Part shown: piece by piece, positions 1-49,156 of the stretch
Numbering within the stretch: the stretch's first letter is position 1
How the letters are laid out: every line of letters starts with the position of its first letter
Source of the DNA: Candidatus Uhrbacteria bacterium
GTDB lineage: Bacteria > Patescibacteriota > Patescibacteriia > UBA9934
Reading direction: 5' to 3'
Assembly (NCBI GenBank): GCA_943359525.1
Contig: CALRHV010000004.1
Span: 1 to 62,277, forward strand
DNA length: 62,277 nucleotides
Position numbers and translations under genes: made by a program
The notes under the pieces: generated by a model
What the model saw: only the letters and a program-made list of their open reading frames with translations
The model's database searches: none
What the model was told of the DNA's origin: nothing

Positions 1-291
1 GGTGCTTTTGCCTTCACCCTTTCCGTTCCTCTTATTTTGATTGGCAACGGCATCGGTGCGCTTGTGGTGCGCCAACTCACCGTAAGCAACATCGAAACGA
101 TTAAAAAGTACATCTACCTCAAAAACGGCGCGATGTACTCACTTCTCATCCTCGGCCTCATGATGATGTGCGAGGCGTTCGGGATCCATCTTCCACAGTG
201 GGGAGCGCCGTTAGCAACGATCCTGATTCTGGTGGCTGCCGTGATGAAGAGTAGGGTGCATATGCGGAATGGTGTGCGAATAGCGAAATAG
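1..291 (+). CDS. DUF475/TerC-like membrane protein, C-terminal part (5' truncated by window)
   Basis: Frame 1 is open from base 1: GAFAFTLSVPLILIGNGIGALVVRQLT...YLKNGAMYS; hydrophobic, resembles DUF475 C-terminus. Confidence 0.6.
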   Translation, partial: GAFAFTLSVPLILIGNGIGALVVRQLTVSNIETIKKYIYLKNGAMYSLLILGLMMMCEAFGIHLPQWGAPLATILILVAAVMKSRVHMRNGVRIAK

Positions 292-5441: not shown

Positions 5442-5645
5442 CAGTCATCCCCGCGCAGGCGGGGATCCAGCGACTTCACTTCACTCACTCATCAACGGGT
5501 CCTGTCGCCTCGGACCCCGTTACGGTGCTCATTTCGCACGTGACGTTTGTGGTAATCGTCATTGGTATCTGTGCTCGTTGCGCTCCGTACGGGGACCTCC
5601 CTCGGCGCCACCCGTTGATTCGTTCGCTTCGCTCATCTCCCTCTT
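5442..5645. repeat. Structured intergenic element starting with REP family A (CAGTCATCCCCGCGCAGGCGGGGATCCAG)
   Basis: REP at 5442-5470; internal IR ATCAACGGGT/ACCCGTTGAT; motif GTGCTCGTT at 5571; 3' end CCTCGGCGCCACCCGTTGATTCGTTCG closely matches 12240-12270. Confidence 0.75.
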
Positions 5646-17334: not shown

Positions 17335-18801
17335 ATGATTGGCATCGCAATTCACCTTCCAACCGTTGTCGTGCACTACCTTAAGGTGACGCCTCTTCCG
17401 CTCATGATGACGCAGGCTCTGCTGCTCATTGGTTGGATTCCAATCCTTGGCGTTATTATTTGGGGTTTAACGCACATTTGGCAAGACTATAAACAGGGCT
17501 TGTACGCAAAAACTCTTAAATGGCAGATTCTCTCAGTGAATGTTCCGCAGGACGCGATCAACACGCCAAAGGGCATGGAGAACTTTTTTGTGAATCTTTC
17601 CGGCGTGAAGTCGGGAATTACCTGGAGAGAAAAGTGGCTTGTTGGAAAAGAACAGGCGTCGTTTAGCTTTGAAATCGTGAGCAACGAAGGAAAGATTCAG
17701 TTCATTATTCGTACGATCGACAAATATCGTGATTTGGTTGAGGCGGCGTTGTATGCGCAGTATCCAGAAGCGCAGATTACCGAAATTCAAGATTACGCCA
17801 TGGCTATTCCACGGGAGTATCCCAACAACGAATACGATGTGTTCGGTGGTGAATTAGCGTTGTCGAATAAAGCATTCTTTCCAATTCGAACATTCGAAGA
17901 CTTTGAACATCAGGGCGAGAAAGACTTCCGTTTTAAGGATCCATTGCTGCCAATTATTGAAATGATGGGAAAAATGCGCGAGAAAGAACACTATTGGATT
18001 CAGTTCATTATTCGTCCCCCAGACGATCAGAGCTGGACGAAGGAAGGCATCGCGTATCTTAATAAAATGATGGGCAAGGAAGAGAAGCATGCGCCGGGCT
18101 TTATGGACGCTATTACGGAAAGCGCGCTATGGCTTCCGAAGGGAGTTGCGGCGCAGTTAATAGGATTTGGTGCCCCAGCAGATGGCCACAAGGAGGAAAA
18201 GAAGGACGACTTCCGCATGTTCCGCATGACTCCTCAGGAGAAAGTGATGCTTGATAGTGTTGCGGATAAAATTTCGAAGGTTGGGTGGAAAACGAAGATT
18301 CGGTTCTTGTACGCTGGTCCAAAAACGGACTTCCGCAAGGGATTGATGGCAAGTTCCATGAAAGGCATGTGGGCGGTATTTACGAATCAAAATTTGAACA
18401 GCTTAAGTTTGCATGGTCCGGCAATTCCGAAGGACGACTACTTCTGGCAGAAATGGAAAATGCCGGAGAAGCAACGGAATCTTGTTGAGCGATATCAGGG
18501 TCGTAAGGGTGGGGCTGGTGGAAGCTGGCAAATGTTGAACACCACAGAGCTCGCGACGTTATTTCACTTTCCAGCAGCAGATGCTCGTACCCCTGTTCTT
18601 TCTACAACTGGAGCGCGCCGTGCGGAGGCTCCAAATACTTTGGAGTTTGCAATACATAATGAGCCGCAGCTTCAAAACTGGAAACTGCAAAATGCCGACG
18701 CGAAGGAGGAAGAGCGTGTACAGAGCCTTCCTATTGCACCACTGCGTGTACCAACCCCAATGTCTCCAACAGAAGACGCGCCACCAAACCTTCCGATGTA
18801 A
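17335..18801 (+). CDS. Hypothetical N-anchored protein partnering the downstream TraD/VirD4-like ATPase
   Basis: N-terminal TM, SFEIVS, LYAQYPEAQITE, LNTTELATLFHFP; immediately upstream of the ATPase. Confidence 0.65.
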   Translation: MIGIAIHLPTVVVHYLKVTPLPLMMTQALLLIGWIPILGVIIWGLTHIWQDYKQGLYAKTLKWQILSVNVPQDAINTPKGMENFFVNLSGVKSGITWREKWLVGKEQASFSFEIVSNEGKIQFIIRTIDKYRDLVEAALYAQYPEAQITEIQDYAMAIPREYPNNEYDVFGGELALSNKAFFPIRTFEDFEHQGEKDFRFKDPLLPIIEMMGKMREKEHYWIQFIIRPPDDQSWTKEGIAYLNKMMGKEEKHAPGFMDAITESALWLPKGVAAQLIGFGAPADGHKEEKKDDFRMFRMTPQEKVMLDSVADKISKVGWKTKIRFLYAGPKTDFRKGLMASSMKGMWAVFTNQNLNSLSLHGPAIPKDDYFWQKWKMPEKQRNLVERYQGRKGGAGGSWQMLNTTELATLFHFPAADARTPVLSTTGARRAEAPNTLEFAIHNEPQLQNWKLQNADAKEEERVQSLPIAPLRVPTPMSPTEDAPPNLPM

Positions 18802-18807
18802 TTTGCT

Positions 18808-20712
18808 ATGCGCTACGAACACGACCACGAAAAAGACATTGTCTATTTTGGCCAAACAAATTTCCGCAATCAAATGCGGAGGTTTGGCATTAAAACAGAC
18901 GACCGTCGTCGCCACATGTATATTGTGGGAAAGACGGGTATGGGAAAGACGGTGCTTTTAGAAAACATGATTCTTGCGGATATTTACGCGGGGCATGGTT
19001 GTGCATACATCGATCCGCACGGAGACACCATCACAAAAATTCTTGATTACATTCCTTCGTGGCGTATTAATGACGTAGTGTATTTTAATCCGGCAGATGC
19101 AGATTTTCCTGTTGCGTTTAACATGCTGGAGAAAACGGAAGGCTGGGAAAACGTAAAAGATTACAATGCGAAAGTGATGTATAGTCTTCTTTCGATTTTT
19201 AAGAAAGTGTGGGAGAACGTGTGGAGTGCCCGCATGGAATACATTCTGCAGTACACGATTCTTGCACTCTTGGACACCCCGGGAACAACGCTCCTTGGTA
19301 TTAACCGCATGTTGTCGGACAAGGAGTATCGCACGGAAATCGTGCAGAACGTAAAGGATCCAATGGTTCAGGCATTCTGGCTCAAGGAATTTGCGCAATA
19401 CGACGTAAAATTTGCTGCAGAGGCTTCTGCGCCAATTCAAAATAAAGTTGGACAGTTCTTGGCGTCAACGATGATGCGAAACATCGTTGCGCAATCAAAA
19501 TCGTCCTTTAATTTCCGTGAAGTGATGGACGGTCAGAAGATCCTTCTTATCAACCTTTCGAAGGGTCAAATAGGTGAAGATGCGATGCGTATTCTTGGCG
19601 GAATGTTGATTACGAAAATCTACATGTCGGCCATGGAGCGTGTGAACATTCGCGACGAAAATGAACGACAAGATTTTTATTTGTACGTGGATGAATTTCA
19701 GAACTTTGCGACGGAATCGTTTGCGGATATTTTGTCTGAAGCCCGAAAGTACCGACTGAATCTGATCATCGCACATCAGTACATCGCGCAGCTCGACAGC
19801 ATGACGTCTACCGCGGTTCGCGACGCCGTGTTTGGTAACGTTGGGAGTTTGATTACATTCCGTATTGGAGCGAAAGATGCGGAATTCTTGGAAAGTGAAT
19901 TCATGCCAAGATTTTTGCCGGAAGACTTGATCAACCTCGCAAAATACAACATTTATTTGAAACTCATGATTGATGGCGTGAGCAGCCAGCCATTCTCGGC
20001 AATGACGCTTCCGCCAATTGGTCAGCGCACAGGAAGCGAGGATAAGGTCGTTGAACAGTCGCGTGAGCGATTCGGCGGAAACCGCAAGATGATTGAAGAC
20101 CATGTGATGACGTGGAGTGGGTTTGATCCAAATATTAATGTTGGTGAGGCGTTAGCGAAGGTTGCCGCAGAAAAGAAGGAAGCAAAAAAGGCACGATTCG
20201 CTCATGAGTACACCTGTGCTCGTTGTGAAAAATTATTTACGTTGCCAGTAGAGCTCGATAAGAGCAGACCAATTTATTGCGACGATTGCCATGCGCTCAT
20301 CGTTGAGGAACGGAAGAAGAAGGGGTCATCAAAACCGCCACAGGGAAAACAGTACGCTCCTGAACCGCCAAAGATTTCAACGAGCGAAATGATTGTGAAA
20401 CCAACGCCAGGGGAGGCCTCACTTGAGGAGCTTCAGCCACGTCCAGCGACGCCAGCTCCAGCAGCTCCGATTGTGCCGATTCCTAGGCCTATTCCTCCTG
20501 TGTTGTCGGCTCCGATTGTGCCAACCACAGAAGGCCAGCCGGCAAAGAAAAAGCGTCGTCGGAAGAAGAAACCATCAGGTCTTGGTTCATCGATGACGCC
20601 AATCCCAAACCCAGCGCCTCGACCAGTTAAAGATTCTGTTGCCGCGGCAATGTCTGCCGGCCCTGTTCCAACTCCCGTTGCTCCCGGTGAGCGGATTAGT
20701 TTCGACGCGTAA
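18808..20712 (+). CDS. TraD/TrwB/VirD4-like (DUF87/HerA) ATPase with CxxC-x17-CxxC domain and Pro/Lys-rich tail
   Basis: IVGKTGMGKT (Walker A), IDPHGD, YVDEFQNF (Walker B), EARKYRL..AHQY, CARC...YCDDC. Confidence 0.85.
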   Translation: MRYEHDHEKDIVYFGQTNFRNQMRRFGIKTDDRRRHMYIVGKTGMGKTVLLENMILADIYAGHGCAYIDPHGDTITKILDYIPSWRINDVVYFNPADADFPVAFNMLEKTEGWENVKDYNAKVMYSLLSIFKKVWENVWSARMEYILQYTILALLDTPGTTLLGINRMLSDKEYRTEIVQNVKDPMVQAFWLKEFAQYDVKFAAEASAPIQNKVGQFLASTMMRNIVAQSKSSFNFREVMDGQKILLINLSKGQIGEDAMRILGGMLITKIYMSAMERVNIRDENERQDFYLYVDEFQNFATESFADILSEARKYRLNLIIAHQYIAQLDSMTSTAVRDAVFGNVGSLITFRIGAKDAEFLESEFMPRFLPEDLINLAKYNIYLKLMIDGVSSQPFSAMTLPPIGQRTGSEDKVVEQSRERFGGNRKMIEDHVMTWSGFDPNINVGEALAKVAAEKKEAKKARFAHEYTCARCEKLFTLPVELDKSRPIYCDDCHALIVEERKKKGSSKPPQGKQYAPEPPKISTSEMIVKPTPGEASLEELQPRPATPAPAAPIVPIPRPIPPVLSAPIVPTTEGQPAKKKRRRKKKPSGLGSSMTPIPNPAPRPVKDSVAAAMSAGPVPTPVAPGERISFDA

Positions 20713-30097: not shown

Positions 30098-30175
30098 CAG
30101 TCATCCCCGCGCAGGCGGGGATCCAGACTGTTCGATCCTGTGTGTTATGGATCCCCGCCTGCGCGGGGATGACTG
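30098..30175. repeat. Inverted doublet of REP family A
   Basis: CAGTCATCCCCGCGCAGGCGGGGATCCA ... TGGATCCCCGCCTGCGCGGGGATGACTG. Confidence 0.9.
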
Positions 30176-31531: not shown

Positions 31532-32671
31532 ATGAATTTGGATATGTTGTCGTACGATGTTGCAATTATTGGTGCTGGAATGGCAGGGCTTGCTTGTGCG
31601 AGAACTCTCGAAGAAAGAGGGGTTAATTTTGTACTGATCGCACCAAATATTGGTGGAGATGTGCGGGCAGATCATGGGGCAAATATGGGGGCATATCTTC
31701 TTACCCCGTCTGCGCAAAAACTCATCCCAAGCATGAAGGCAGAAAAGCGAGTCTGGCTAGGAAACACCATCTTTTGGGGAGATACAGTTCAACCAATTTA
31801 TAAACGAGCACTCTCGCCTCATCTGTTGTCCTTGTATAAAAAACTTCGTCATTTTCGAAAGCAATTTCTTCAATTCCAACAGGACGAGGCACAGATCGGT
31901 TTGATTTCTGCACTATCTCGGTCTCCAGACCTTCAAGGTCTTCAGCGTGTTGCATTCGTTGACTATGCAGGAGATGCGTTCTCCGTGGCAGAACGTTTGC
32001 TTCTTTCGGTTGCAGTAGATCCTGTGGTGCGAATGTGTACACTTGCCGAACCAGCGGAACTTTCTGCTTTTGAATATTTGCATGTAGCGATGCATATCGA
32101 TATTCCTGTACACACATTTATTTTCGATGCTGATACTTTTATTCAGCCTTTTGCTGAACGGTACATTAAAGAGAGTGTAACGGCCGTGGAGCATACTTCT
32201 TGCGGATGGCGAATTACTACACAACATGGAGAATGCGTTACTGCGAATTCCCTTGTTGCCGCGAATGGAGCGCATCATTCCCCTCATCTTTTTGCCGAGC
32301 TTCCTGTTTCGGATACACGGTTTGCGTCATGCATACTCTTTCATGTTCGTGGAACGATTCGTTCTCAGTTTTCTGGCCAGTTACATGTGTTTCCGGTGGG
32401 ACATCCCGTATATTTTTTACAGGATCAAGGAGACGGAACGGTGATTATTGCCTTGAAGGACGATGGGGATTCATATGAAAATTTTGTTCGTGTTGAGGAG
32501 GTATTGAGTAAGGCTACATGGAAAAAAGCTTTTCCAATTGGTCCTAGGGAATGGACTAATCCAAAGATTTCTGAAAATCTTTACATATTAAATGATCGAA
32601 ATATTGTCGGCATAGAAGATTCCTATCGTTCTGGCTTGTGGGTGGGAAGAGCGCTCGTAGACTCACGATAA
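31532..32671 (+). CDS. FAD-dependent oxidoreductase, unknown substrate
   Basis: DVAIIGAGMAGLACA Rossmann motif; visibly AT-richer than flanks. Confidence 0.7.
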   Translation: MNLDMLSYDVAIIGAGMAGLACARTLEERGVNFVLIAPNIGGDVRADHGANMGAYLLTPSAQKLIPSMKAEKRVWLGNTIFWGDTVQPIYKRALSPHLLSLYKKLRHFRKQFLQFQQDEAQIGLISALSRSPDLQGLQRVAFVDYAGDAFSVAERLLLSVAVDPVVRMCTLAEPAELSAFEYLHVAMHIDIPVHTFIFDADTFIQPFAERYIKESVTAVEHTSCGWRITTQHGECVTANSLVAANGAHHSPHLFAELPVSDTRFASCILFHVRGTIRSQFSGQLHVFPVGHPVYFLQDQGDGTVIIALKDDGDSYENFVRVEEVLSKATWKKAFPIGPREWTNPKISENLYILNDRNIVGIEDSYRSGLWVGRALVDSR

Positions 32672-32673
32672 AT

Positions 32674-33279
32674 ATGCGCATTACAACGAACCTCGATGCT
32701 GCGATTGCGTGTTTGAAATCTGGTGGCATTGTCGTCTATCCCACAGAAACATCGTATGGAATTGGGTGTGATGCTACGAATGCTGCTGCGGTCGCCAAAG
32801 TATTTTCAATCAAGAATCGCCCTTTGGATAAGGGTGTGACGGTGCTTTTGTCTGCGAATGATCCTTTCGGTGATGTGCATGTGCTTTGGCGATCGGAGCT
32901 TCACGATCTTGCAGCTAAACATTGGCCGGGTCCGTTGAATATTGTCTGTTCGATTACGGCAACCTCATCGATTGCGCCACAGTGTCTCACTAATGGAACG
33001 ATCGCCACACGCCGATCAAGCCATCTCATCGCAAACGCTCTCGTCGACGCGCTTGGCGTTCCCCTTGTTTCTACGAGTGCGAATATTTCTGGAGAATCCG
33101 AACTTTACAGCGCCCAAGGAATCTACGATCGATTGAGTAGTGAGTCGATTCAGCCAGATGTGATTTTCGATGTAGGTGAATTACCAAAACGCGCACCGTC
33201 CACACTCGTTACGTGGGACGATGCGCGGGGTGAGGTAAAGGTGTTGTGGCAAGGGGAGATTGTTCTTGCGAATTGTTAG
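32674..33279 (+). CDS. tsaC: L-threonylcarbamoyladenylate synthase (Sua5/YrdC/TsaC)
   Basis: YPTETSYGIG, IKNRP, HWPGPL, LVSTSANISG, PST. Confidence 0.9.
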   Translation: MRITTNLDAAIACLKSGGIVVYPTETSYGIGCDATNAAAVAKVFSIKNRPLDKGVTVLLSANDPFGDVHVLWRSELHDLAAKHWPGPLNIVCSITATSSIAPQCLTNGTIATRRSSHLIANALVDALGVPLVSTSANISGESELYSAQGIYDRLSSESIQPDVIFDVGELPKRAPSTLVTWDDARGEVKVLWQGEIVLANC

Positions 33280-33680
33280 GAGTTCCCGACGTTGCCCCTC
33301 GTTTCAACCAGGTCTCCGAACTGGTTTAACGTTGATATCCTGGAAAGTATTTCTTGAATTTTCTCGCCGTAAGGTTCGGTTGATTGATAAACGCTGCGGA
33401 TTTTTTCGGACAATGCGTCCCACTGCTCAGCGAGTTTCTTTTTAGATTCTGAATCCACGTCAGTATTTTGGAGTGCGACGGTTACAGCATTCTGAGCGGC
33501 GGATAGCTCATTCAAATTCAGATGTAGTTCGAGTGCATCCCTTTCATTTCGTATCGTGTCAATCAATGTAAAGAGTCGTTCTACCTCCTTTGTTGTTTTT
33601 TTAAGGTGCGTTGTCGCATTATTTATCCGTTCGGTTGTCGCTTGAACCATTGCGAGCTTTTCTTGATCGATCGGCTTCAT
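33276..33680 (-). CDS. Coiled-coil hypothetical protein
   Basis: MKPIDQEK...; heptad-like, AT-rich; ORF-track upstream extension lies in the glmS duplicate. Confidence 0.55.
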   Translation of the reverse strand: MKPIDQEKLAMVQATTERINNATTHLKKTTKEVERLFTLIDTIRNERDALELHLNLNELSAAQNAVTVALQNTDVDSESKKKLAEQWDALSEKIRSVYQSTEPYGEKIQEILSRISTLNQFGDLVETRGNVGNS

Positions 33681-33691
33681 ATAAAAATAGT

Positions 33692-33790
33692 TTAGTCCAC
33701 TGTCACAGCCTTCGCAAGATTGCGGGGACGGTCGGGGTTGATATCTTTGAGCACGGCAAGTTCGTAAGCAAGGATTTGAAGGGGGATGTT
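33692..33790 (-). pseudogene. Duplicated 3' end of glmS (99 bp), att-like direct repeat
   Basis: Encodes [32 protein letters not shown]; 91/99 nt identical to 34510-34608. Confidence 0.9.
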
Positions 33791-33886
33791 GGTACAACAG
33801 AAGAGGCATTGATTAGCCCGATAAAAACATCATCGGCGCCCCCCGCGTTATGCGAAGGGCGCCGTTGTCGTACGTGACGGGCGGTT

Positions 33887-34435
33887 CTACTGTGTTTCCC
33901 GCCAGGTGAGGAAGTCGAGGATGATCTCGACGAGCTGGCCGGTGGTCACCCGACTCTCCATTCCTCTCAGCTTGATGTCCTCGAGGAACCGCTGCAGCCT
34001 TGGGTTCAGCGGCCGCTCCATCCCGTCGCCGTCGGAACACTCCCAGGTTCCTGAGGTGTCCTTTGGCCGCAAGAAGAAATCGTGCCCGTTGAGCGTTACG
34101 GTCAGGAGAACCGGATGCGTGTTCATCCAGAATCCGCCGTAGAGATCCGGCGTCTGGTAGTTGATGCCCACCATGACGCAGAACGCTCCATTAAACCTCA
34201 ATTCCGGGCGGTCGATTTCGCGAGGCTCGGTCCAGCAGACTTCAGAATGTTGTTCTCCGATTCCTTCGTGTTCGATCGCCTGCTCGCTCTGCTCTCGGTT
34301 GTAGCCCATTCGGGCTTCGACGATGCCGATGATCATGCGGGCGGTGCTCACGAGGTAGTTCAGTTCGACCAGCGTGGGGAGGATGGTGTCGTCGGTATTA
34401 GAATCGGTGTCGTTGTTCACGGGAACTCCAGTCAT
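33887..34435 (-). CDS. Hypothetical protein (cargo between the glmS repeats)
   Basis: Open frame, GC3-rich codons, own promoter; start taken at MTGVPV. Confidence 0.6.
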   Translation of the reverse strand: MTGVPVNNDTDSNTDDTILPTLVELNYLVSTARMIIGIVEARMGYNREQSEQAIEHEGIGEQHSEVCWTEPREIDRPELRFNGAFCVMVGINYQTPDLYGGFWMNTHPVLLTVTLNGHDFFLRPKDTSGTWECSDGDGMERPLNPRLQRFLEDIKLRGMESRVTTGQLVEIILDFLTWRETQ

Positions 34436-34478
34436 GGTGTGGGTTGGCGATGCATCGATGACGAATCGATGACCAGAG

Positions 34479-34507
34479 ATTATCGCATAGATTAGCGAAA
34501 AAGTCAA
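34479..34507 (-). promoter_or_regulatory. Sigma-70 promoter of the cargo gene
   Basis: TTGACT-N17-GATAAT on the minus strand, starting 2 nt after the glmS stop. Confidence 0.7.
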
Positions 34508-34509
34508 TC

Positions 34510-36333
34510 TTAATCCACGGTTACAGCCTTCGCAAGATTGCGGGGACGGTCTGGGTTGATATCTTTGAGCACGGCAAGTTCGTAGGCGAGGAGTTGGAGG
34601 GGGATGTTCGCCACAAGGCCGGTGAGGACACCGTTTTTTGGAACGATGATGGTTTCTGAGGCAACGCGTTCTGCGAGCTTTGGATTGTCGGTGATAATGA
34701 TGGTTCGTGCGCCACGAGCTCGTACTTCTTCGGCGGCGGTTCGCATGAGCTGACCATGTTGATCATCGAAGATACAGAGAATCACCGGCGTGTTTTCCAC
34801 GATGAGTGCGAATGGCCCGTGCTTCAGCGCGCCGCCAGCATACCCTTCGGCATGGAGATAGGTAATCTCTTTAATCTTTAGCGCACCTTCTCGAGCAATT
34901 GATTCGCATGGCCCTTTTCCGAGCACGAAGCAATGCTCGGCATCCACGAGGGTTTTTGCGATCTCCTTACACGTTTCGCGAGTGTTGAGCGCGATTTTCA
35001 CGAGCGTTGGCAAGCGACGAAGTTCGTCGATGAGATGACGGCGACGCTCAGCTTCGGTACCGCGATGCATGCTGAACCACGCGGCAATCATTTCGAGTGC
35101 GACGACTTGCGTGCTAAATGCTTTCGTCGATGCTACTGCATGTTCGCGACCAGCGTTGAGGTACACGCCACATTTTGTGCTTCGCGCAATGAGCGATCCA
35201 ACCGCGTTTATCACCGAGAATGTTGGCACACCGCGATCTTGGGCAATGACGAGCGCGCGATGGGTGTCCTTTGTTTCGCCGGATTGTGAAATCACGAGTA
35301 GGCCGGCGCCGTGTGGAGCGAAGTGATGTTCGGTGATTTCGGATGCGTCGACTACTTGCACGGTGTCGAAGGCCTTCAACGCTCGCATACCAAGTGCACC
35401 GTACATGCCGGCGTGAAGCGATGTTCCGCACGCGGCGATGACCAGGTGTTTTATGCCGAGGAGTGTTTCTTTGTTGCGTTCCAGTCCGCCGAGCTTCATC
35501 TCGAGATCCGTTGGAATACGTGCGCCGTGGTTGAGTGTTCGTGCAAGCGCGTCGGGTTGCTCCATGATTTCCTTGATGGTCCAGTGTGGAAAAGGAGCGG
35601 GGGAGAGCTCGATGACTTCTTCTGGCGCAAGCTCGACTCGTGAAGTATCGAGTGTGGTGCCTTCCGGAGTGATCAGCGCGAACTCGCCGTTTTGTAATGC
35701 GATGAACTCGCGGGTGTGATTGTTGAATGCCGACGGTTCGCTCGCAACGTACATGGTTCCTTTTCCAACGCCAACCACCAGAGGACTGCCGTTTCGAGCT
35801 GCCAGAATCGTATTTGGCATCAGCGGAGAGACGACTGCGACGCCCCACGTGCCTTCAAGTTTCGCAAGGGCGTGCTTCGTCGCCACGTCCAATCCCTCGC
35901 CGTCGTCGAGGTATTTTCCGATGAGTTGGGCGATGATTTCTGTATCAGTTTGAGATTTGAAAACAATTCCCAAGGCTTCGAGATCGGCCTTGAGCATGTG
36001 CGCGTTCTCGATAATGCCGTTGTGGACGAGGGCAAGACGATTCTTCATGTCCGAGTGGGGATGGGCGTTGGCATCCGTTTTTCCACCATGTGTTGCCCAA
36101 CGGGTATGGCCAATGCCAGATCGATTCCCGACGTGGTCGGCGATATGTTCTCGAAGTTTCACGATGGCATCGGGAGCAACGCCGCTCGCGAACTTTGTCG
36201 TGACAATCGTTCCAGCGTCCGAAACCGTCGCCACGCCAGCAGAATCGTATCCACGGCTTTCCAAAATCGAAAGCCCGTCAATAATTATGCTGACACTATT
36301 TGTATCCCCAACAACCCCGATGATTCCACACAT
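34510..36333 (-). CDS. glmS: Glutamine--fructose-6-phosphate aminotransferase
   Basis: [57 protein letters not shown]. Confidence 0.97.
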   Translation of the reverse strand: MCGIIGVVGDTNSVSIIIDGLSILESRGYDSAGVATVSDAGTIVTTKFASGVAPDAIVKLREHIADHVGNRSGIGHTRWATHGGKTDANAHPHSDMKNRLALVHNGIIENAHMLKADLEALGIVFKSQTDTEIIAQLIGKYLDDGEGLDVATKHALAKLEGTWGVAVVSPLMPNTILAARNGSPLVVGVGKGTMYVASEPSAFNNHTREFIALQNGEFALITPEGTTLDTSRVELAPEEVIELSPAPFPHWTIKEIMEQPDALARTLNHGARIPTDLEMKLGGLERNKETLLGIKHLVIAACGTSLHAGMYGALGMRALKAFDTVQVVDASEITEHHFAPHGAGLLVISQSGETKDTHRALVIAQDRGVPTFSVINAVGSLIARSTKCGVYLNAGREHAVASTKAFSTQVVALEMIAAWFSMHRGTEAERRRHLIDELRRLPTLVKIALNTRETCKEIAKTLVDAEHCFVLGKGPCESIAREGALKIKEITYLHAEGYAGGALKHGPFALIVENTPVILCIFDDQHGQLMRTAAEEVRARGARTIIITDNPKLAERVASETIIVPKNGVLTGLVANIPLQLLAYELAVLKDINPDRPRNLAKAVTVD

Positions 36334-36531: not shown

Positions 36532-36825
36532 ATGTCCCACGACATGCCGTTACCATCTGAGGCTCCTATCACATTACGTGAAATGGTCATGCTCACAAAT
36601 AAAAAAAATGAAGAAATGTTTATGGACCTTGTGTTCGAGGGAAAATCTGGAAATCATTTCATTTCTCTTGTTCCAGTGGGTGTAGAGCCAAATATGAGAA
36701 TAGCGATTCAGGGATCAAGGGCAAGGGTGATGAAAATTTTTGAGGACGCGAAGGAGATGAAGGGAAAAACATACAACGAAATCGACGAGTTTCTTCAAAA
36801 AAGTTCAAGAGAATCAAAAGTATAA
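36532..36825 (+). CDS. Small hypothetical protein
   Basis: 97-aa AT-rich ORF between glmS promoter region and tRNA-Glu terminator. Confidence 0.45.
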   Translation: MSHDMPLPSEAPITLREMVMLTNKKNEEMFMDLVFEGKSGNHFISLVPVGVEPNMRIAIQGSRARVMKIFEDAKEMKGKTYNEIDEFLQKSSRESKV

Positions 36826-36880: not shown

Positions 36881-36955
36881 TGGTGACTCCACGGAGAATC
36901 GAACTCCGATTAAAGGCTTGAGAAGCCTCTGTCCTAACCGTTAGACGATGGAGCC
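36881..36955 (-). tRNA. tRNA-Glu (CTC)
   Basis: GGCTCCA acceptor, anticodon arm AGGC-TTCTCAA-GCCT, GTTCGATTC T-loop, encoded CCA. Confidence 0.95.
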
Positions 36956-42476: not shown

Positions 42477-43079
42477 ATGACGCAAGACGAATCACAGAAT
42501 CCAGGATCGAATTTGGTCGGGGACAAGGAAGCGAATGTCAGTCATCCTGAGCATAGCGAAGGATCTCCCGCAGATTCCGGTCATCCCCGCGCAGGCGGGG
42601 ATCCATCATCAGATCTCGAAGCCCTTCAAACCAAATGCGCCGAATACCTCTCCGGCTGGAAGCGTGCTCTCGCAGACTACGAAAACCTTCAAAAGCAAAA
42701 CTCCAGCGCCCGCGATGATGATCGCCGACGCGTTCGATCGAATCTCGCAGAAGACTTGCTCCCCGTCGTCGACAACTTCGGCTACGTCACGAAGCACGTT
42801 CCCGACATCAGCGAGTGTCCTGAAGAGTTCAAGAAAAAGTTCGACACCTGGTTCCAAGGCATCGGCCATATTGAACGCCAATTCGCGGAAGCGATGAAAG
42901 GACTCGGCGTTGAGCCGATTGAAAGCATCGGCACGATCTTCGACCCGAACCTTCACGAAAGCGGCGGCTCGCGATCGGAACCTGGAAAGAAAGAACACGA
43001 GATCGTGGAAGAACTCATCAAGGGCTGGAAGATCGGTGACGTTGTTCTGCGACCTGCAAAAGTAATCGTTAATGAATAA
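42477..43079 (+). CDS. grpE: Nucleotide exchange factor GrpE with REP-derived N-terminal insert
   Basis: [41 protein letters not shown]. Confidence 0.93.
42541..42605 (+). repeat. Two REP units (family B and family A) in-frame in grpE
   Basis: GTCATCCTGAGCATAGCGAAGGATCTC (42541-42567) and GTCATCCCCGCGCAGGCGGGGATCCA (42580-42605). Confidence 0.9.
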
Positions 43080-49088: not shown

Positions 49089-49156
49089 CGTCATCCCCGC
49101 GTAGGCGGGGATCCATCACTCCGAACAATCTGGATCCCCGCCTACGCGGGGATGAC
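49089..49156. repeat. Inverted doublet of REP family A between convergent genes
   Basis: CGTCATCCCCGCGTAGGCGGGGATCCA ... TGGATCCCCGCCTACGCGGGGATGAC. Confidence 0.9.

Follow-up and report, generated by a model that had tools for sequence, protein, structure and literature searches.

The closest described systems are loci in which the 3′ end of a conserved gene is displaced. For the dissociated core fragments with their tips in rhs arrays, the proposed mechanism is homologous recombination through a circular intermediate (Jackson et al. 2009, PMC2935791); for the arrays of T6SS effector and immunity genes, it is homology-facilitated illegitimate recombination (Kirchberger et al. 2017, PMC5361080). 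During natural transformation, the latter process is reported for Acinetobacter, Streptococcus pneumoniae, and Pseudomonas stutzeri, as cited in PMC5361080 and PMC3240628. In a patescibacterium, Com-dependent natural transformation and homologous recombination have been demonstrated, and the com genes are conserved across the CPR (PMC10633639).

Here, I analyzed a 62,277-nt stretch of DNA (the window) from a MAG of a Candidatus Uhrbacteria (Patescibacteria) bacterium. In this window, a promoter-ORF-terminator unit (the cassette) and a second small gene (cc134) lie downstream of glmS, separated by a second copy of the glmS end (Table 1). The second glmS end most likely marks the joining, by ordinary recombination, of two alternative gene arrangements from related Uhrbacteria, and not a self-mobile element targeting glmS. 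The locus works like the 3′-end displacement class, yet it is no member of the toxin-locus families. As in the rhs, CDI, and T6SS loci, an intact conserved gene is followed by an apparently incoming 3′ end and a linked small gene, and the old 3′ end persists downstream as a dissociated stub on its own small gene. The conserved part would be the homology anchor, with no dedicated recombinase. The breakpoints of the glmS locus likewise lie in conserved flanks, and its modules also occur singly elsewhere. In contrast to those loci, the anchor is a housekeeping gene with an invariant end, both ends encoding the same peptide except for one L/I exchange. Neither the cargo of the cassette nor cc134 matches a toxin, immunity, or defence family, there is a single displaced stub rather than a string of them, and the host is a patescibacterium.

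Table 1. Coordinates of the features of the glmS locus in the window.
Feature	Position	Strand	Remarks
Sua5/YrdC-family gene	32638..33279	+	Pfam PF01300; convergent, stop overlaps the cc134 stop
cc134, 134-aa coiled-coil-like orphan gene	33276..33680	-	Pfam/PADLOC: coiled-coil noise only
Repeat copy B	33692..33790	-	Displaced, untranslated stub, apparently of a second glmS allele
Probable decayed Mur ligase 3′-end stub, 34 nt including stop codon	33791..33824	+	Register from L003, L006
Predicted intrinsic terminator	33823..33864	-	13-bp GC stem and T-run; conserved in L003, L006
Cargo ORF, 182 aa from ATG	33887..34435	-	Relatives in L003, L006, L022 only
Cassette promoter-like site TTGACT-17-GATAAT, TG-extended	34479..34507	-	10/12 matches
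Repeat copy A	34510..34608	-	Functional last 32 codons and stop of glmS; cassette promoter begins 2 nt past the stop
glmS (glutamine--fructose-6-phosphate aminotransferase), 607 aa	34510..36333	-	Pfam GATase_6/7 and two SIS domains

Homology-facilitated illegitimate recombination resembles this locus in that one homologous anchor and one non-homologous joint trap DNA beside a conserved gene, with an arbitrary far boundary inside a neighboring gene (here, the putative Mur ligase stub). However, its classical products replace or insert sequence without duplicating the anchor, whereas 99 nt are duplicated here. Because of this duplication, a circular or Campbell-type intermediate fits better than a classical illegitimate product. 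Integrase-dependent islands (tRNA/tmRNA, guaA, and trmE/thdF sites) likewise show direct repeats of the 3′ end of the target, a gene-proximal copy from the incoming DNA, and allelic divergence between the copies. Unlike for those islands, no integrase was found in the window, and the 99-nt repeats are imperfect and lack a defined core. Furthermore, the distal repeat is missing from other copies of the cassette, only one 182-aa ORF is carried as cargo, and the far end resembles neighboring chromosomal sequence. With Tn7 and Tn7-like elements at attTn7, only the neighborhood is in common, in that an insertion hotspot adjoins the conserved region encoding the glmS C-terminus, and every defining feature that was tested is absent here.

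The duplicated glmS end

A repeat finder returned a single 99-nt direct repeat with 92% identity and a spacing of 818 nt. On the minus strand, both copies are the final 32 codons and the TAA stop codon of glmS. The two copies differ at eight positions. Seven of the differences are synonymous, all at codon position 3, while the eighth is at codon position 1 and changes CTC (Leu) to ATC (Ile). Thus, the repeat described in a first-pass annotation of this DNA, with the same eight differences, was found again both by the repeat finder and by codon comparison. Among random point changes in the 99-nt stretch, 25% would be synonymous. The probability of finding at least seven synonymous changes out of eight is 3.8e-4, and that of finding at least seven out of eight at codon position 3 is 0.0026. 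This bias supports the earlier proposal that both copies were once under coding selection. Since the copies thus appear to be two glmS alleles that diverged under such selection, one of them would be an incoming replacement end, as was also proposed.

The edges of the repeat are sharp. The 3′ edge is exactly the stop codon, and no similarity exists upstream of the 5′ edge. The same structure is present in the contig k141_2590805 of ENA ERZ27280264, in which 5 of 15,828 bases deviate from the window, and the structure in NCBI GCA_964685005.1 is identical to that of the window. The duplicated glmS end should not be a one-off assembly artefact, since it recurs across assemblies. By reading of the sequence, copy B is preceded by a TGA codon that is followed by no in-frame start codon. 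The same kind of reading gives a weak candidate promoter (TTGCGA-17-TAAACT, 33717-33689) within the stub.

Is the functional end of glmS native to this gene? The glmS protein of the window shares 95-96% amino acid identity with those of L019, L020, L021, L004, and L005 (the L-numbered loci are relatives' contigs). The last ~120-240 nt of the gene are nearer to the "KDINP" alleles of L016 and L018, with 6-8 versus 10-12 differences per 60 nt. In a control with L019 as the reference, no allele switch was seen near the glmS 3′ end. The window glmS is a mosaic near its 3′ end, with a patch that seems to come from another clade.

Copy B consists of two parts. Positions 70-99 show no difference from the glmS end of L018, L023, L024, and L025, and cc134 follows there likewise. 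Positions 1-69 show 81% identity to these alleles and are nearest to copy A, with five differences as compared with at least seven to any other allele. At the informative sites, L018 and L023 agree with copy A at all five sites in positions 1-69 and with copy B at all three sites in positions 70-99. This left/right pattern is the one expected from a crossover within the repeat, and a site-specific crossover would be compatible with it, too. In outgroup alleles at the eight differences, the third positions are homoplasious and the pattern of L016 is mixed.

The cassette and the slot downstream of glmS

The TTGACT-N17-GATAAT promoter, the ORF, and the GC hairpin that the first-pass annotation had placed between the repeat copies were all recovered. 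The 23-nt promoter region TTGACTTTTTCGCTAATCTATGC is identical at 23 of 23 positions in L003, and its first 15 nt are kept in L006 (L003 and L006 represent two other Uhrbacteria). In both of these loci, as in the window, the promoter stretch starts 2 nt past the glmS stop codon. Five codons downstream of the ATG of the cargo ORF, there is a GTG codon with a GGAG sequence 5 nt upstream of it. The terminator hairpin extends from 33864 to 33834 and is followed by the T-run, with a predicted folding energy of -41.4 kcal/mol for the hairpin region (z = -5.7).

The cargo protein has very few relatives. P0002 of L003 shows 57% identity, a C-terminal remnant in L006 shows 73%, and L022 has a distant frameshifted copy. 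A search of 5.8 billion proteins with the cargo sequence returned one homologue. When 1.84 billion representatives were searched exhaustively with a profile, one further hit emerged, a distant 115-aa fragment whose contig begins inside the gene. No match was found in Pfam, PHROG, PADLOC, NCBIfam, or the PDB sequences. The AlphaFold2 model, which was based on a two-sequence alignment, has a pLDDT of 68. A structural comparison had been suggested in the first-pass annotation, and Foldseek searches of the PDB and BFVD yielded nothing better than E = 0.3. No copies of the cargo were found in viral contigs, plasmids, or phages by tblastn-type scans. A scan for the conserved promoter core found three unrelated promoters in JGI metagenome contigs and none in viral contigs.

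In the window, in L003 (intact), and in L006 (decayed), the cassette lies flush with the stop codon of glmS. The second glmS end is found in the window lineage alone and is absent at the L003 and L006 cassettes. A search for other elements that carry glmS 3′ ends had been suggested. A sensitive blastn search with all allele variants found the stub only in the window lineage.

On the other side of the stub, the junction with cc134 is the same as the junction between intact glmS and cc134 in L018 and L023-L025. These four contigs, from four sequencing runs, have an intact glmS followed by cc134 and then Sua5. In them, cc134 sits 10-11 nt past glmS and is 96% identical to the window copy in nucleotides and 93% in amino acids (126 of 135 aligned positions). 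The contigs were found via P0125, a member of the 90% cluster of cc134, and via a partial gene at the end of L018; a protein search for cc134 homologues returned the query alone. The window shares 96-100% identity with the glmS-cc134 contigs between position 70 of the stub and a point ~55 nt inside Sua5, while the identity drops to 81% on the left and to 82-88% on the right. The 3′ ~55 nt of Sua5 are part of a ~500-nt block that is 96-97% identical to L023, while the remainder of Sua5 is 82-88% identical. Such a high-identity block with diverged flanks looks like the signature of homologous exchange in which conserved gene ends served as the arms. It is likely that cc134 is the native downstream partner of the glmS allele of the stub. 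Copy B would then be the stub of a second glmS allele, derived from a glmS-cc134-Sua5 haplotype that is intact elsewhere.

Empty sites, for which a comparison with sister genomes had been proposed, do exist. L008, L010, L011, L016, and L019-L021 have neither the cassette nor cc134. The glmS and Sua5 stop codons abut or overlap in L019-L021, L008, L011, and L016. L019-L021, which lack both small genes, are the nearest backbone relatives of the window. In further relatives, unrelated small genes occupy the slot after glmS. The first-pass annotation had pointed to a full tandem glmS duplication kept in relatives as evidence that would speak against a cassette; such tandem full-length copies were looked for among the relatives and not found.

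The far end of the cassette was also compared. In L003 and L006, the neighbor of the cassette is a Mur ligase gene, whose stop codon abuts the T-run of the terminator and thereby fixes the register of the 34 nt between the terminator and the glmS stub. In this fixed register, 14-17 of 31 nt match the Mur ligase 3′ ends of eight of nine relatives (shuffling p = 0.0007-0.02), while no match is seen for L005 (7/31), nor for the Mur ligase of the window itself (11/31). Genuine Mur ligase ends share 19-27 of 31 nt. When the 43-nt spacer was compared with Mur ligase and Sua5 3′ ends by unanchored local alignment, p was ~0.01-0.03. The comparison in the fixed register thus gave the stronger signal, which is nonetheless modest. 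These figures are suggestive of a decayed Mur ligase 3′ end. Given this resemblance, the far boundary may be a break inside a neighboring gene and not the terminus of an element. If real, the Mur ligase stub has an in-frame stop codon and several radical changes, and is far more decayed than the glmS stub. Because of this unequal decay, the two remnants may differ in age. More than one event probably shaped the history of the locus. The terminator region also has a 22-nt match in the Mur ligase gene of the window itself, which was rejected as chance, since it is not colinear.

Origin of the second glmS end

I favor the view, with a probability of roughly 60%, that the locus is a scar of 3′-end displacement, a homologous crossover and one illegitimate joint having placed two glmS-downstream haplotypes one behind the other. 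One haplotype (H1), as in L003 and L006, would have consisted of glmS, the cassette (promoter, 182-aa ORF, and terminator), and a convergent Mur ligase gene. The other (H2), as in L018 and L023-L025, would have consisted of glmS, a gap of 10-11 nt, cc134, and a convergent Sua5 gene. The anatomy of the locus, the two haplotypes, the empty sites, the mosaicism, and the lack of mobility genes are observed, while what happened first, which way the DNA was transferred, and how it was taken up are inferred. The DNA of one haplotype may have entered a cell carrying the other, plausibly by natural transformation. The two would have been joined by a homologous crossover in glmS or Mur ligase, as the conserved flank, and by a single non-homologous joint that connects base +34 of the H1 Mur ligase 3′ end to base -99 of the H2 glmS. 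Both accessory genes would thus have come to lie in tandem. The functional glmS would retain the H1-linked end (copy A), while the H2 end (copy B) would stay as an untranslated stub before cc134. The eight mostly synonymous differences would represent allelic divergence older than the event. The event itself would be recent, since the glmS stub shows no decay.

The joining may have taken one of two routes. One is homology-facilitated illegitimate recombination of a linear fragment. The other is a Campbell-type insertion of a circularized 818-bp fragment via the 99-nt homology, as in the model of rhs tip displacement. Neither route would need a dedicated recombinase or a glmS-specific targeting system. 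A linear homology-anchored fragment is not normally expected to rejoin upstream of where its homology ends, and a circle or an unusual joint would therefore be needed for the additive outcome. The microhomology at the joint amounts to a few bases at most. Among the available contigs, neither an exact parental H1 (copy-A allele, cassette, and intact Mur ligase) nor an exact parental H2 (the window glmS with the copy-B allele and cc134) was found. The haplotypes are known from more distant relatives, whose cargo proteins are 57-73% identical and whose glmS, in the case of L023, is 87% identical in amino acids.

Could the cassette instead be a small mobile element? It might be an 818-bp non-autonomous element whose attP mimics the last 99 nt of glmS and whose recombinase is encoded elsewhere or by a helper. 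A crossover inside the glmS end would restore glmS and displace the old end. The circle junction would then read from the 33791-side sequence and the glmS-like end into GATTGACTTTTTCGC, and the empty site would lead from the window glmS directly to ACTATTTTTATATGAAGCCG. Direct repeats from two alleles do bracket a self-contained promoter-ORF-terminator unit, and the promoter core after the stop codon is unusually well conserved (23 of 23 nt) for a cargo protein identity of only 57%. When L018/L023 is taken as a proxy for the empty site, the five left sites match copy A and the three right sites match copy B, as expected of attL and attR if the crossover fell between positions 57 and 87. However, this pattern rests on eight homoplasious third-position sites, and the proxy L016 is mixed. 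The earlier suggestion of a minimal or decayed element targeting glmS does not fit L003 and L006, where the cassettes sit flush without an attR-like glmS stub; nor does any other insert in the slot have one. As the first-pass annotation had stated, no recombinase is present nearby, although one may be encoded elsewhere in the genome. No integrase or transposase match was found among the ~50 ORFs of the whole window, using precomputed Pfam assignments for the ±10-kb flanks and a search of the remaining window ORFs. The cargo family has ~4 members in 5.8 + 1.8 billion proteins, none of them viral, plasmid, or phage proteins, and the far boundary resembles a Mur ligase stub. Three contigs have the exact glmS protein, and in each of them the cargo and cc134 proteins are exact as well, so no excised form is on record. 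I consider such an integrative cassette unlikely. A remnant of a Tn7-like or CRISPR-associated transposon at attTn7 is extremely unlikely. The site lies next to the glmS 3′ end, classically the region where Tn7 attaches, which was the reason for the Tn7 link in the first-pass annotation. This link was not borne out: tnsA, tnsB, tnsC, tnsD-like, and TniQ domains are absent in the ~50 window ORFs, terminal inverted repeats are absent around the cassette, and what is duplicated is a 99-nt piece of coding sequence instead of a 5-bp target site. In addition, the cassette begins 2 nt past the stop codon and not ~25 bp downstream.

The structure might also have arisen without any incoming cassette. 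Among spontaneous rearrangements, none is commoner than tandem duplication with a novel joint. The stretch from glmS base -99 to Mur ligase base +34 may have been copied in tandem in an H1-type genome. Later, the second cassette would have been replaced homologously by cc134-Sua5-DAO, and the functional glmS end overwritten by another allele. The joint of Mur ligase +34 to glmS -99 is the exact product expected from an L003-like locus. Positions 1-69 of the stub are nearest to copy A while positions 70-99 match L023 without a difference, and the window lineage has demonstrably had its glmS 3′ end overwritten by recombination. Still, such a local duplication is improbable. It requires three or more successive events, and the five differences in positions 1-69 (four synonymous and one conservative) are unexpected from non-coding decay. 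Moreover, no relative has two cassette copies or a tandem glmS. An assembly chimera of two co-occurring strains, one bearing the cassette and the other cc134, could be imagined because metagenomes commonly hold strain mixtures. Both haplotype types occur in related environmental samples, and the ENA and NCBI record accession numbers of L016/L017 are near those of the window records. In a chimera, however, the switch is expected in shared sequence, while the joint 33790|33791 coincides with the repeat edge and borders unique sequence. The longest identical blocks (29-32 nt) are far below k = 141. The structure is present in three assemblies with contigs unequal in extent, one of which has 5 SNPs over 15.8 kb. 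Thus, a chimera is very unlikely.

If the locus is indeed a scar of recombination between two haplotypes, it would be a clean natural example of accessory gene gain in the genome-reduced, mobile-element-poor Patescibacteria, in which diverged DNA recombined through the conserved ends of housekeeping genes. Such recombination can leave a short, coding-looking gene stub that mimics an att site. For pipelines that call islands and att sites, the duplication of a gene end is thus no proof of an integrase-type element. The glmS locus reveals no new mobility mechanism.

The glmS/Sua5/Mur-ligase junction is a variable slot in Uhrbacteria that gathers orphan genes. There is a slim chance that the 3′ ends of these three genes form a recombinase-free landing pad in Uhrbacteria and perhaps in other Patescibacteria. 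Self-contained promoter-ORF-terminator units with one gene each would then pass from lineage to lineage together with part of the glmS coding sequence, through which they would be inserted additively. The 818-bp unit could in that case be a recurrently mobile mini-cassette, moved, once DNA had been taken up, as a circle by the host RecA, or by a recombinase acting in trans. As for single modules attached to an intact glmS, the cassette alone is seen in L003 and L006, and cc134 alone in L018 and L023-L025.

A repeated glmS end around a one-gene insert

Judged by its glmS relatives, the window belongs to Candidatus Uhrbacteria, within Patescibacteria. In the orientation of glmS, the gene order is glmS, the cassette, a 99-nt stub of the glmS 3′ end, the coiled-coil-like gene cc134, a convergent Sua5 gene, an FAD oxidoreductase gene, a Mur ligase gene, and a PBP gene. 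A repeat search revealed a single long direct repeat in this region, comprising 33692-33790 (copy B, the stub) and 34510-34608 (copy A, the functional end), 99 nt long, 92% identical, and 818 nt apart. On the minus strand, both copies correspond to the last 32 codons and the TAA codon of glmS. The 3′ edge of the repeat is exactly the stop codon, and the 5′ edge is sharp. As described in the first-pass annotation, the copies differ at eight positions; seven are synonymous third-position changes, and the eighth is CTC(Leu)/ATC(Ile). Since only 25% of random point changes in the repeat would be synonymous, 7/8 has a probability of 3.8e-4. Thus, the proposal that both copies were once under coding selection holds, and the differences are read as allelic divergence. 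The promoter, ORF, and GC hairpin reported between the copies were also found.

The identical arrangement occurs in an ENA contig (5/15,828 bases different) and in an NCBI MAG contig. Since these share the repeat anatomy and the insert, the structure is more than an artefact of one assembly. The first ~1500 nt of the window's glmS are nearest the L019 clade of relatives' contigs, while the last ~120-240 nt are nearer the L016/L018 clade; in a control with L019 as the reference, no such switch was seen. The 'LKDINP' signature of the L016/L018 clade is present in both copies.

Features around the glmS stub, with nucleotide identity to the relative L023
Feature	Position	Strand	Description	Identity to L023
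glmS	34510-36333	minus	607 aa, GATase and two SIS domains	
Sigma-70-like promoter	begins 2 nt past glmS stop	minus	TTGACT-17-GATAAT	
Cargo ORF	34435 to 33887	minus	182 aa	
GC hairpin and T-run	after cargo ORF	minus	13-bp stem, -41.4 kcal/mol, z -5.7	
Stub positions 1-69				81%
Stub positions 70-99				100%
Stub/cc134 spacer				10/11 nt
cc134	33680 to 33276	minus	134-aa coiled-coil-like orphan gene	96%
Sua5 3′ end, first ~55 nt				93-97%
Sua5 further in				82-88%

The insert and its junctions in relatives

A search of 5.8 billion proteins yielded a single clear homologue of the cargo protein, P0002 (57% identity), and family, structure, and context searches gave no function. In L003, which encodes P0002, glmS is followed by the same promoter 2 nt past its stop codon (23/23 nt identical), the ORF, the same terminator, and, directly after it, the stop codon of a convergent Mur ligase gene. 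L006 has a decayed cassette at the same place, of which the -35 region of the promoter, the final 51 codons (73% identity), and the terminator remain, again followed by Mur ligase. A second glmS end is absent from both loci. No copy of the cassette was found in viral contigs or in phage or plasmid records, and a promoter-core search of JGI metagenome contigs found none either. From this placement, the few homologues, and the lack of copies in mobile records, it is concluded that the cassette is a rare chromosomal resident that evolves quickly beside glmS and does not behave like an element that integrates repeatedly. L022 begins inside the only distant cargo homologue (1-462; E = 2e-6), which a frameshift divides; beyond it lie a terminator and, in convergent orientation, an rlmH-like SPOUT methyltransferase gene.

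Between the terminator T-run and the stub lie 34 nt (33824-33791). Their register was taken from L003 and L006, in which the T-run directly adjoins the stop codon of Mur ligase. This segment matches the Mur ligase 3′ ends of 8/9 relatives at 14-17 of 31 positions (p 0.0007-0.02), but not that of L005 (7/31) or the window's own (11/31); true Mur ligase ends have 19-27 of 31 positions in common, and unanchored alignments were only marginal. The segment is a probable, heavily decayed Mur ligase stub. If so, the far end of the insert would be a break within a neighbouring gene, not the terminus of an element. Since the putative Mur ligase stub is much more decayed than the glmS stub, the two may differ in age.

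A protein search left cc134 looking like an orphan. Nevertheless, the Logan contigs L018, L023, L024, and L025, which represent four runs, have an intact glmS, 10 nt, cc134 (96% nt and 93% aa identity to the window), and a convergent Sua5 with the same unusual C-terminus as in the window. Their intact glmS-cc134 junction is the stub-cc134 junction of the window. This shared junction and the identity profile to L023 argue that the stub is the remnant of a complete glmS formerly directly before cc134. The profile marks a block of ~500 nt that was exchanged recently, with borders inside the conserved glmS and Sua5 ends.

A 177-aa ORF (33276-33809, minus) starts from an ATG within the putative Mur ligase stub, crosses the glmS stub in the +1 frame, and shares its frame with cc134. 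In L018 and L023, whose spacer has 10 nt versus 11, the frames disagree; the ORF is probably fortuitous. At the stub end, weak hexamers (TTGCGA-17-TAAACT, 33689-33717, minus; 8/12 matches, below the scan threshold) were spotted by eye. Transcription from them would begin 1-3 nt ahead of the cc134 ATG and so be leaderless; this candidate promoter could explain cc134 expression behind the cassette terminator.

The first-pass annotation suggested looking for an empty site in sister genomes, and it was indeed found. The nearest backbone relatives, L019, L020, and L021 (glmS 95-96%, Mur ligase 92-95% aa), and L016 have convergent glmS and Sua5 genes whose stop codons overlap. In L008 and L011, glmS directly abuts Sua5, and in L010 it abuts Mur ligase. 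Other relatives carry unrelated cargoes in this slot: a 169-aa unknown ORF (L004, 7825-8380), a PaaX/Cas2-like 130-aa ORF between copies of the ~25-nt palindrome AAAAGTCGCGATCGC (L005, 2139-2764), an AT-rich (38% GC) unknown ORF of 233-240 aa (L007, 3572-4304; L012, 2451-3465), and an apparently interrupted UDG-like ORF plus other genes (L009, 6988-8743). L009 and L012 also have a tRNA-Ser(tga)-like gene within a conserved ~250-nt non-coding stretch of the slot. A glmS stub accompanies none of these inserts. Judging from these loci, the downstream junction of glmS is a variable slot in Uhrbacteria, with the stub confined to the window lineage.

Proposed fusion of two haplotypes and its alternatives

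The simplest account is that two haplotypes fused at this locus, one with glmS-cassette-Mur ligase (H1) and one with glmS-cc134-Sua5-...-Mur ligase (H2), through one homologous crossover in a flank that they share and a single non-homologous joint ('Mur ligase +34 | glmS -99'). The synonymous divergence of the copies would be allelic and older than the fusion, which would be recent because the glmS stub is undecayed. The fusion could have occurred via homology-facilitated illegitimate recombination of a linear fragment, or a circularised fragment could have entered by Campbell-type insertion at the 99-nt homology; the product is the same. A circularised-fragment model was proposed to account for the old rhs tip being shunted downstream and not deleted (PMC2935791), and a linear-fragment route has been proposed for T6SS effector-immunity arrays (PMC5361080). 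The com genes are conserved across CPR, and natural transformation, with homologous recombination, is established for one saccharibacterium (PMC10633639); by analogy, DNA uptake by Uhrbacteria is plausible. Entry of the cassette into H2 is slightly favoured over entry of the cc134 block into H1, since backbone relatives keep Sua5 beside glmS.

At eight informative sites, L018 and L023 agree with copy A in the left part of the repeat and with copy B in the right part. A crossover within the repeat, homologous or site-specific alike, would produce this pattern, so a site-specific mini-element would fit it; however, the sites are homoplasious third positions, and L016 is mixed. In line with the remark that no recombinase is present, a check of about 50 ORFs across the 62-kb window found no integrase, transposase, or Tn7 protein domain. 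The suggestion of a minimal or decayed element targeting glmS is not sustained, given the L003 and L006 cassettes without a second glmS end and a far end resembling Mur ligase, and such a mini-element is unlikely. A tandem duplication followed by replacement is about equally unlikely. Both stay live because of the possible age mismatch of the stubs, the site pattern, and the exact parental haplotypes, which were not found. An assembly chimera is very improbable in view of the ENA and NCBI contigs. A Tn7-like remnant, the reading raised by the Tn7 attachment region at the glmS end, is more improbable still; besides the missing Tn7 domains, the repeat search found no inverted repeats bracketing the insert.

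The glmS locus resembles 3′-end displacement at rhs, CDI, and T6SS loci and has the structural features of that process but is no toxin locus. Of the hallmarks of Tn7-like elements and integrase-type islands that were checked, the insert shows none. The locus adds a case to a known class of recombination scars, with a housekeeping gene as the site and an unusual host. It is of modest interest, mainly as a caution in att-site inference, and the locus marks a variable gene slot.

Other features of the contig

The FAD-dependent oxidoreductase gene (DAO family, 379 aa; 31532-32671, plus) between Sua5 and Mur ligase is missing from the Sua5/Mur ligase junction in all relatives examined (L004, L008, L011, L016, and L019-L021). 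It is thus another gain specific to this lineage, only some hundreds of bases off the glmS slot. A VirD4/TrwB/TraG-like type IV coupling protein gene (634 aa), preceded by a 488-aa ORF without a family match, lies ~14 kb off (17335-20712, plus), with no relaxase or integrase nearby. Just upstream of glmS are a tRNA-Glu(CTC) gene (36881-36955, minus), likewise upstream of glmS in L004 and L005, and a 97-aa ORF (36532-36825, plus) with a weak, sub-threshold TcpC-like match.

The palindromic 20-mer ATCCCCGCGCAGGCGGGGAT occurs at 5447-5466, 30103-30122, 30151-30170, 42583-42602, 49093-49112, and 49134-49153 (8 matches in the window at ≤3 mismatches versus 0.01 expected). Near 49.1 kb, and also in the interval from PBP to Mur ligase, the copies form inverted pairs, and a single copy falls within the grpE ORF; the dispersed palindrome looks like a REP/MITE-like element. 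It lengthens the Mur ligase ORF with a 'VIPAQAGIQ...WIPACAGMT' N-terminus, and a similar peptide appears in the translated 5′ part of the partial Sua5 ORF of L023.
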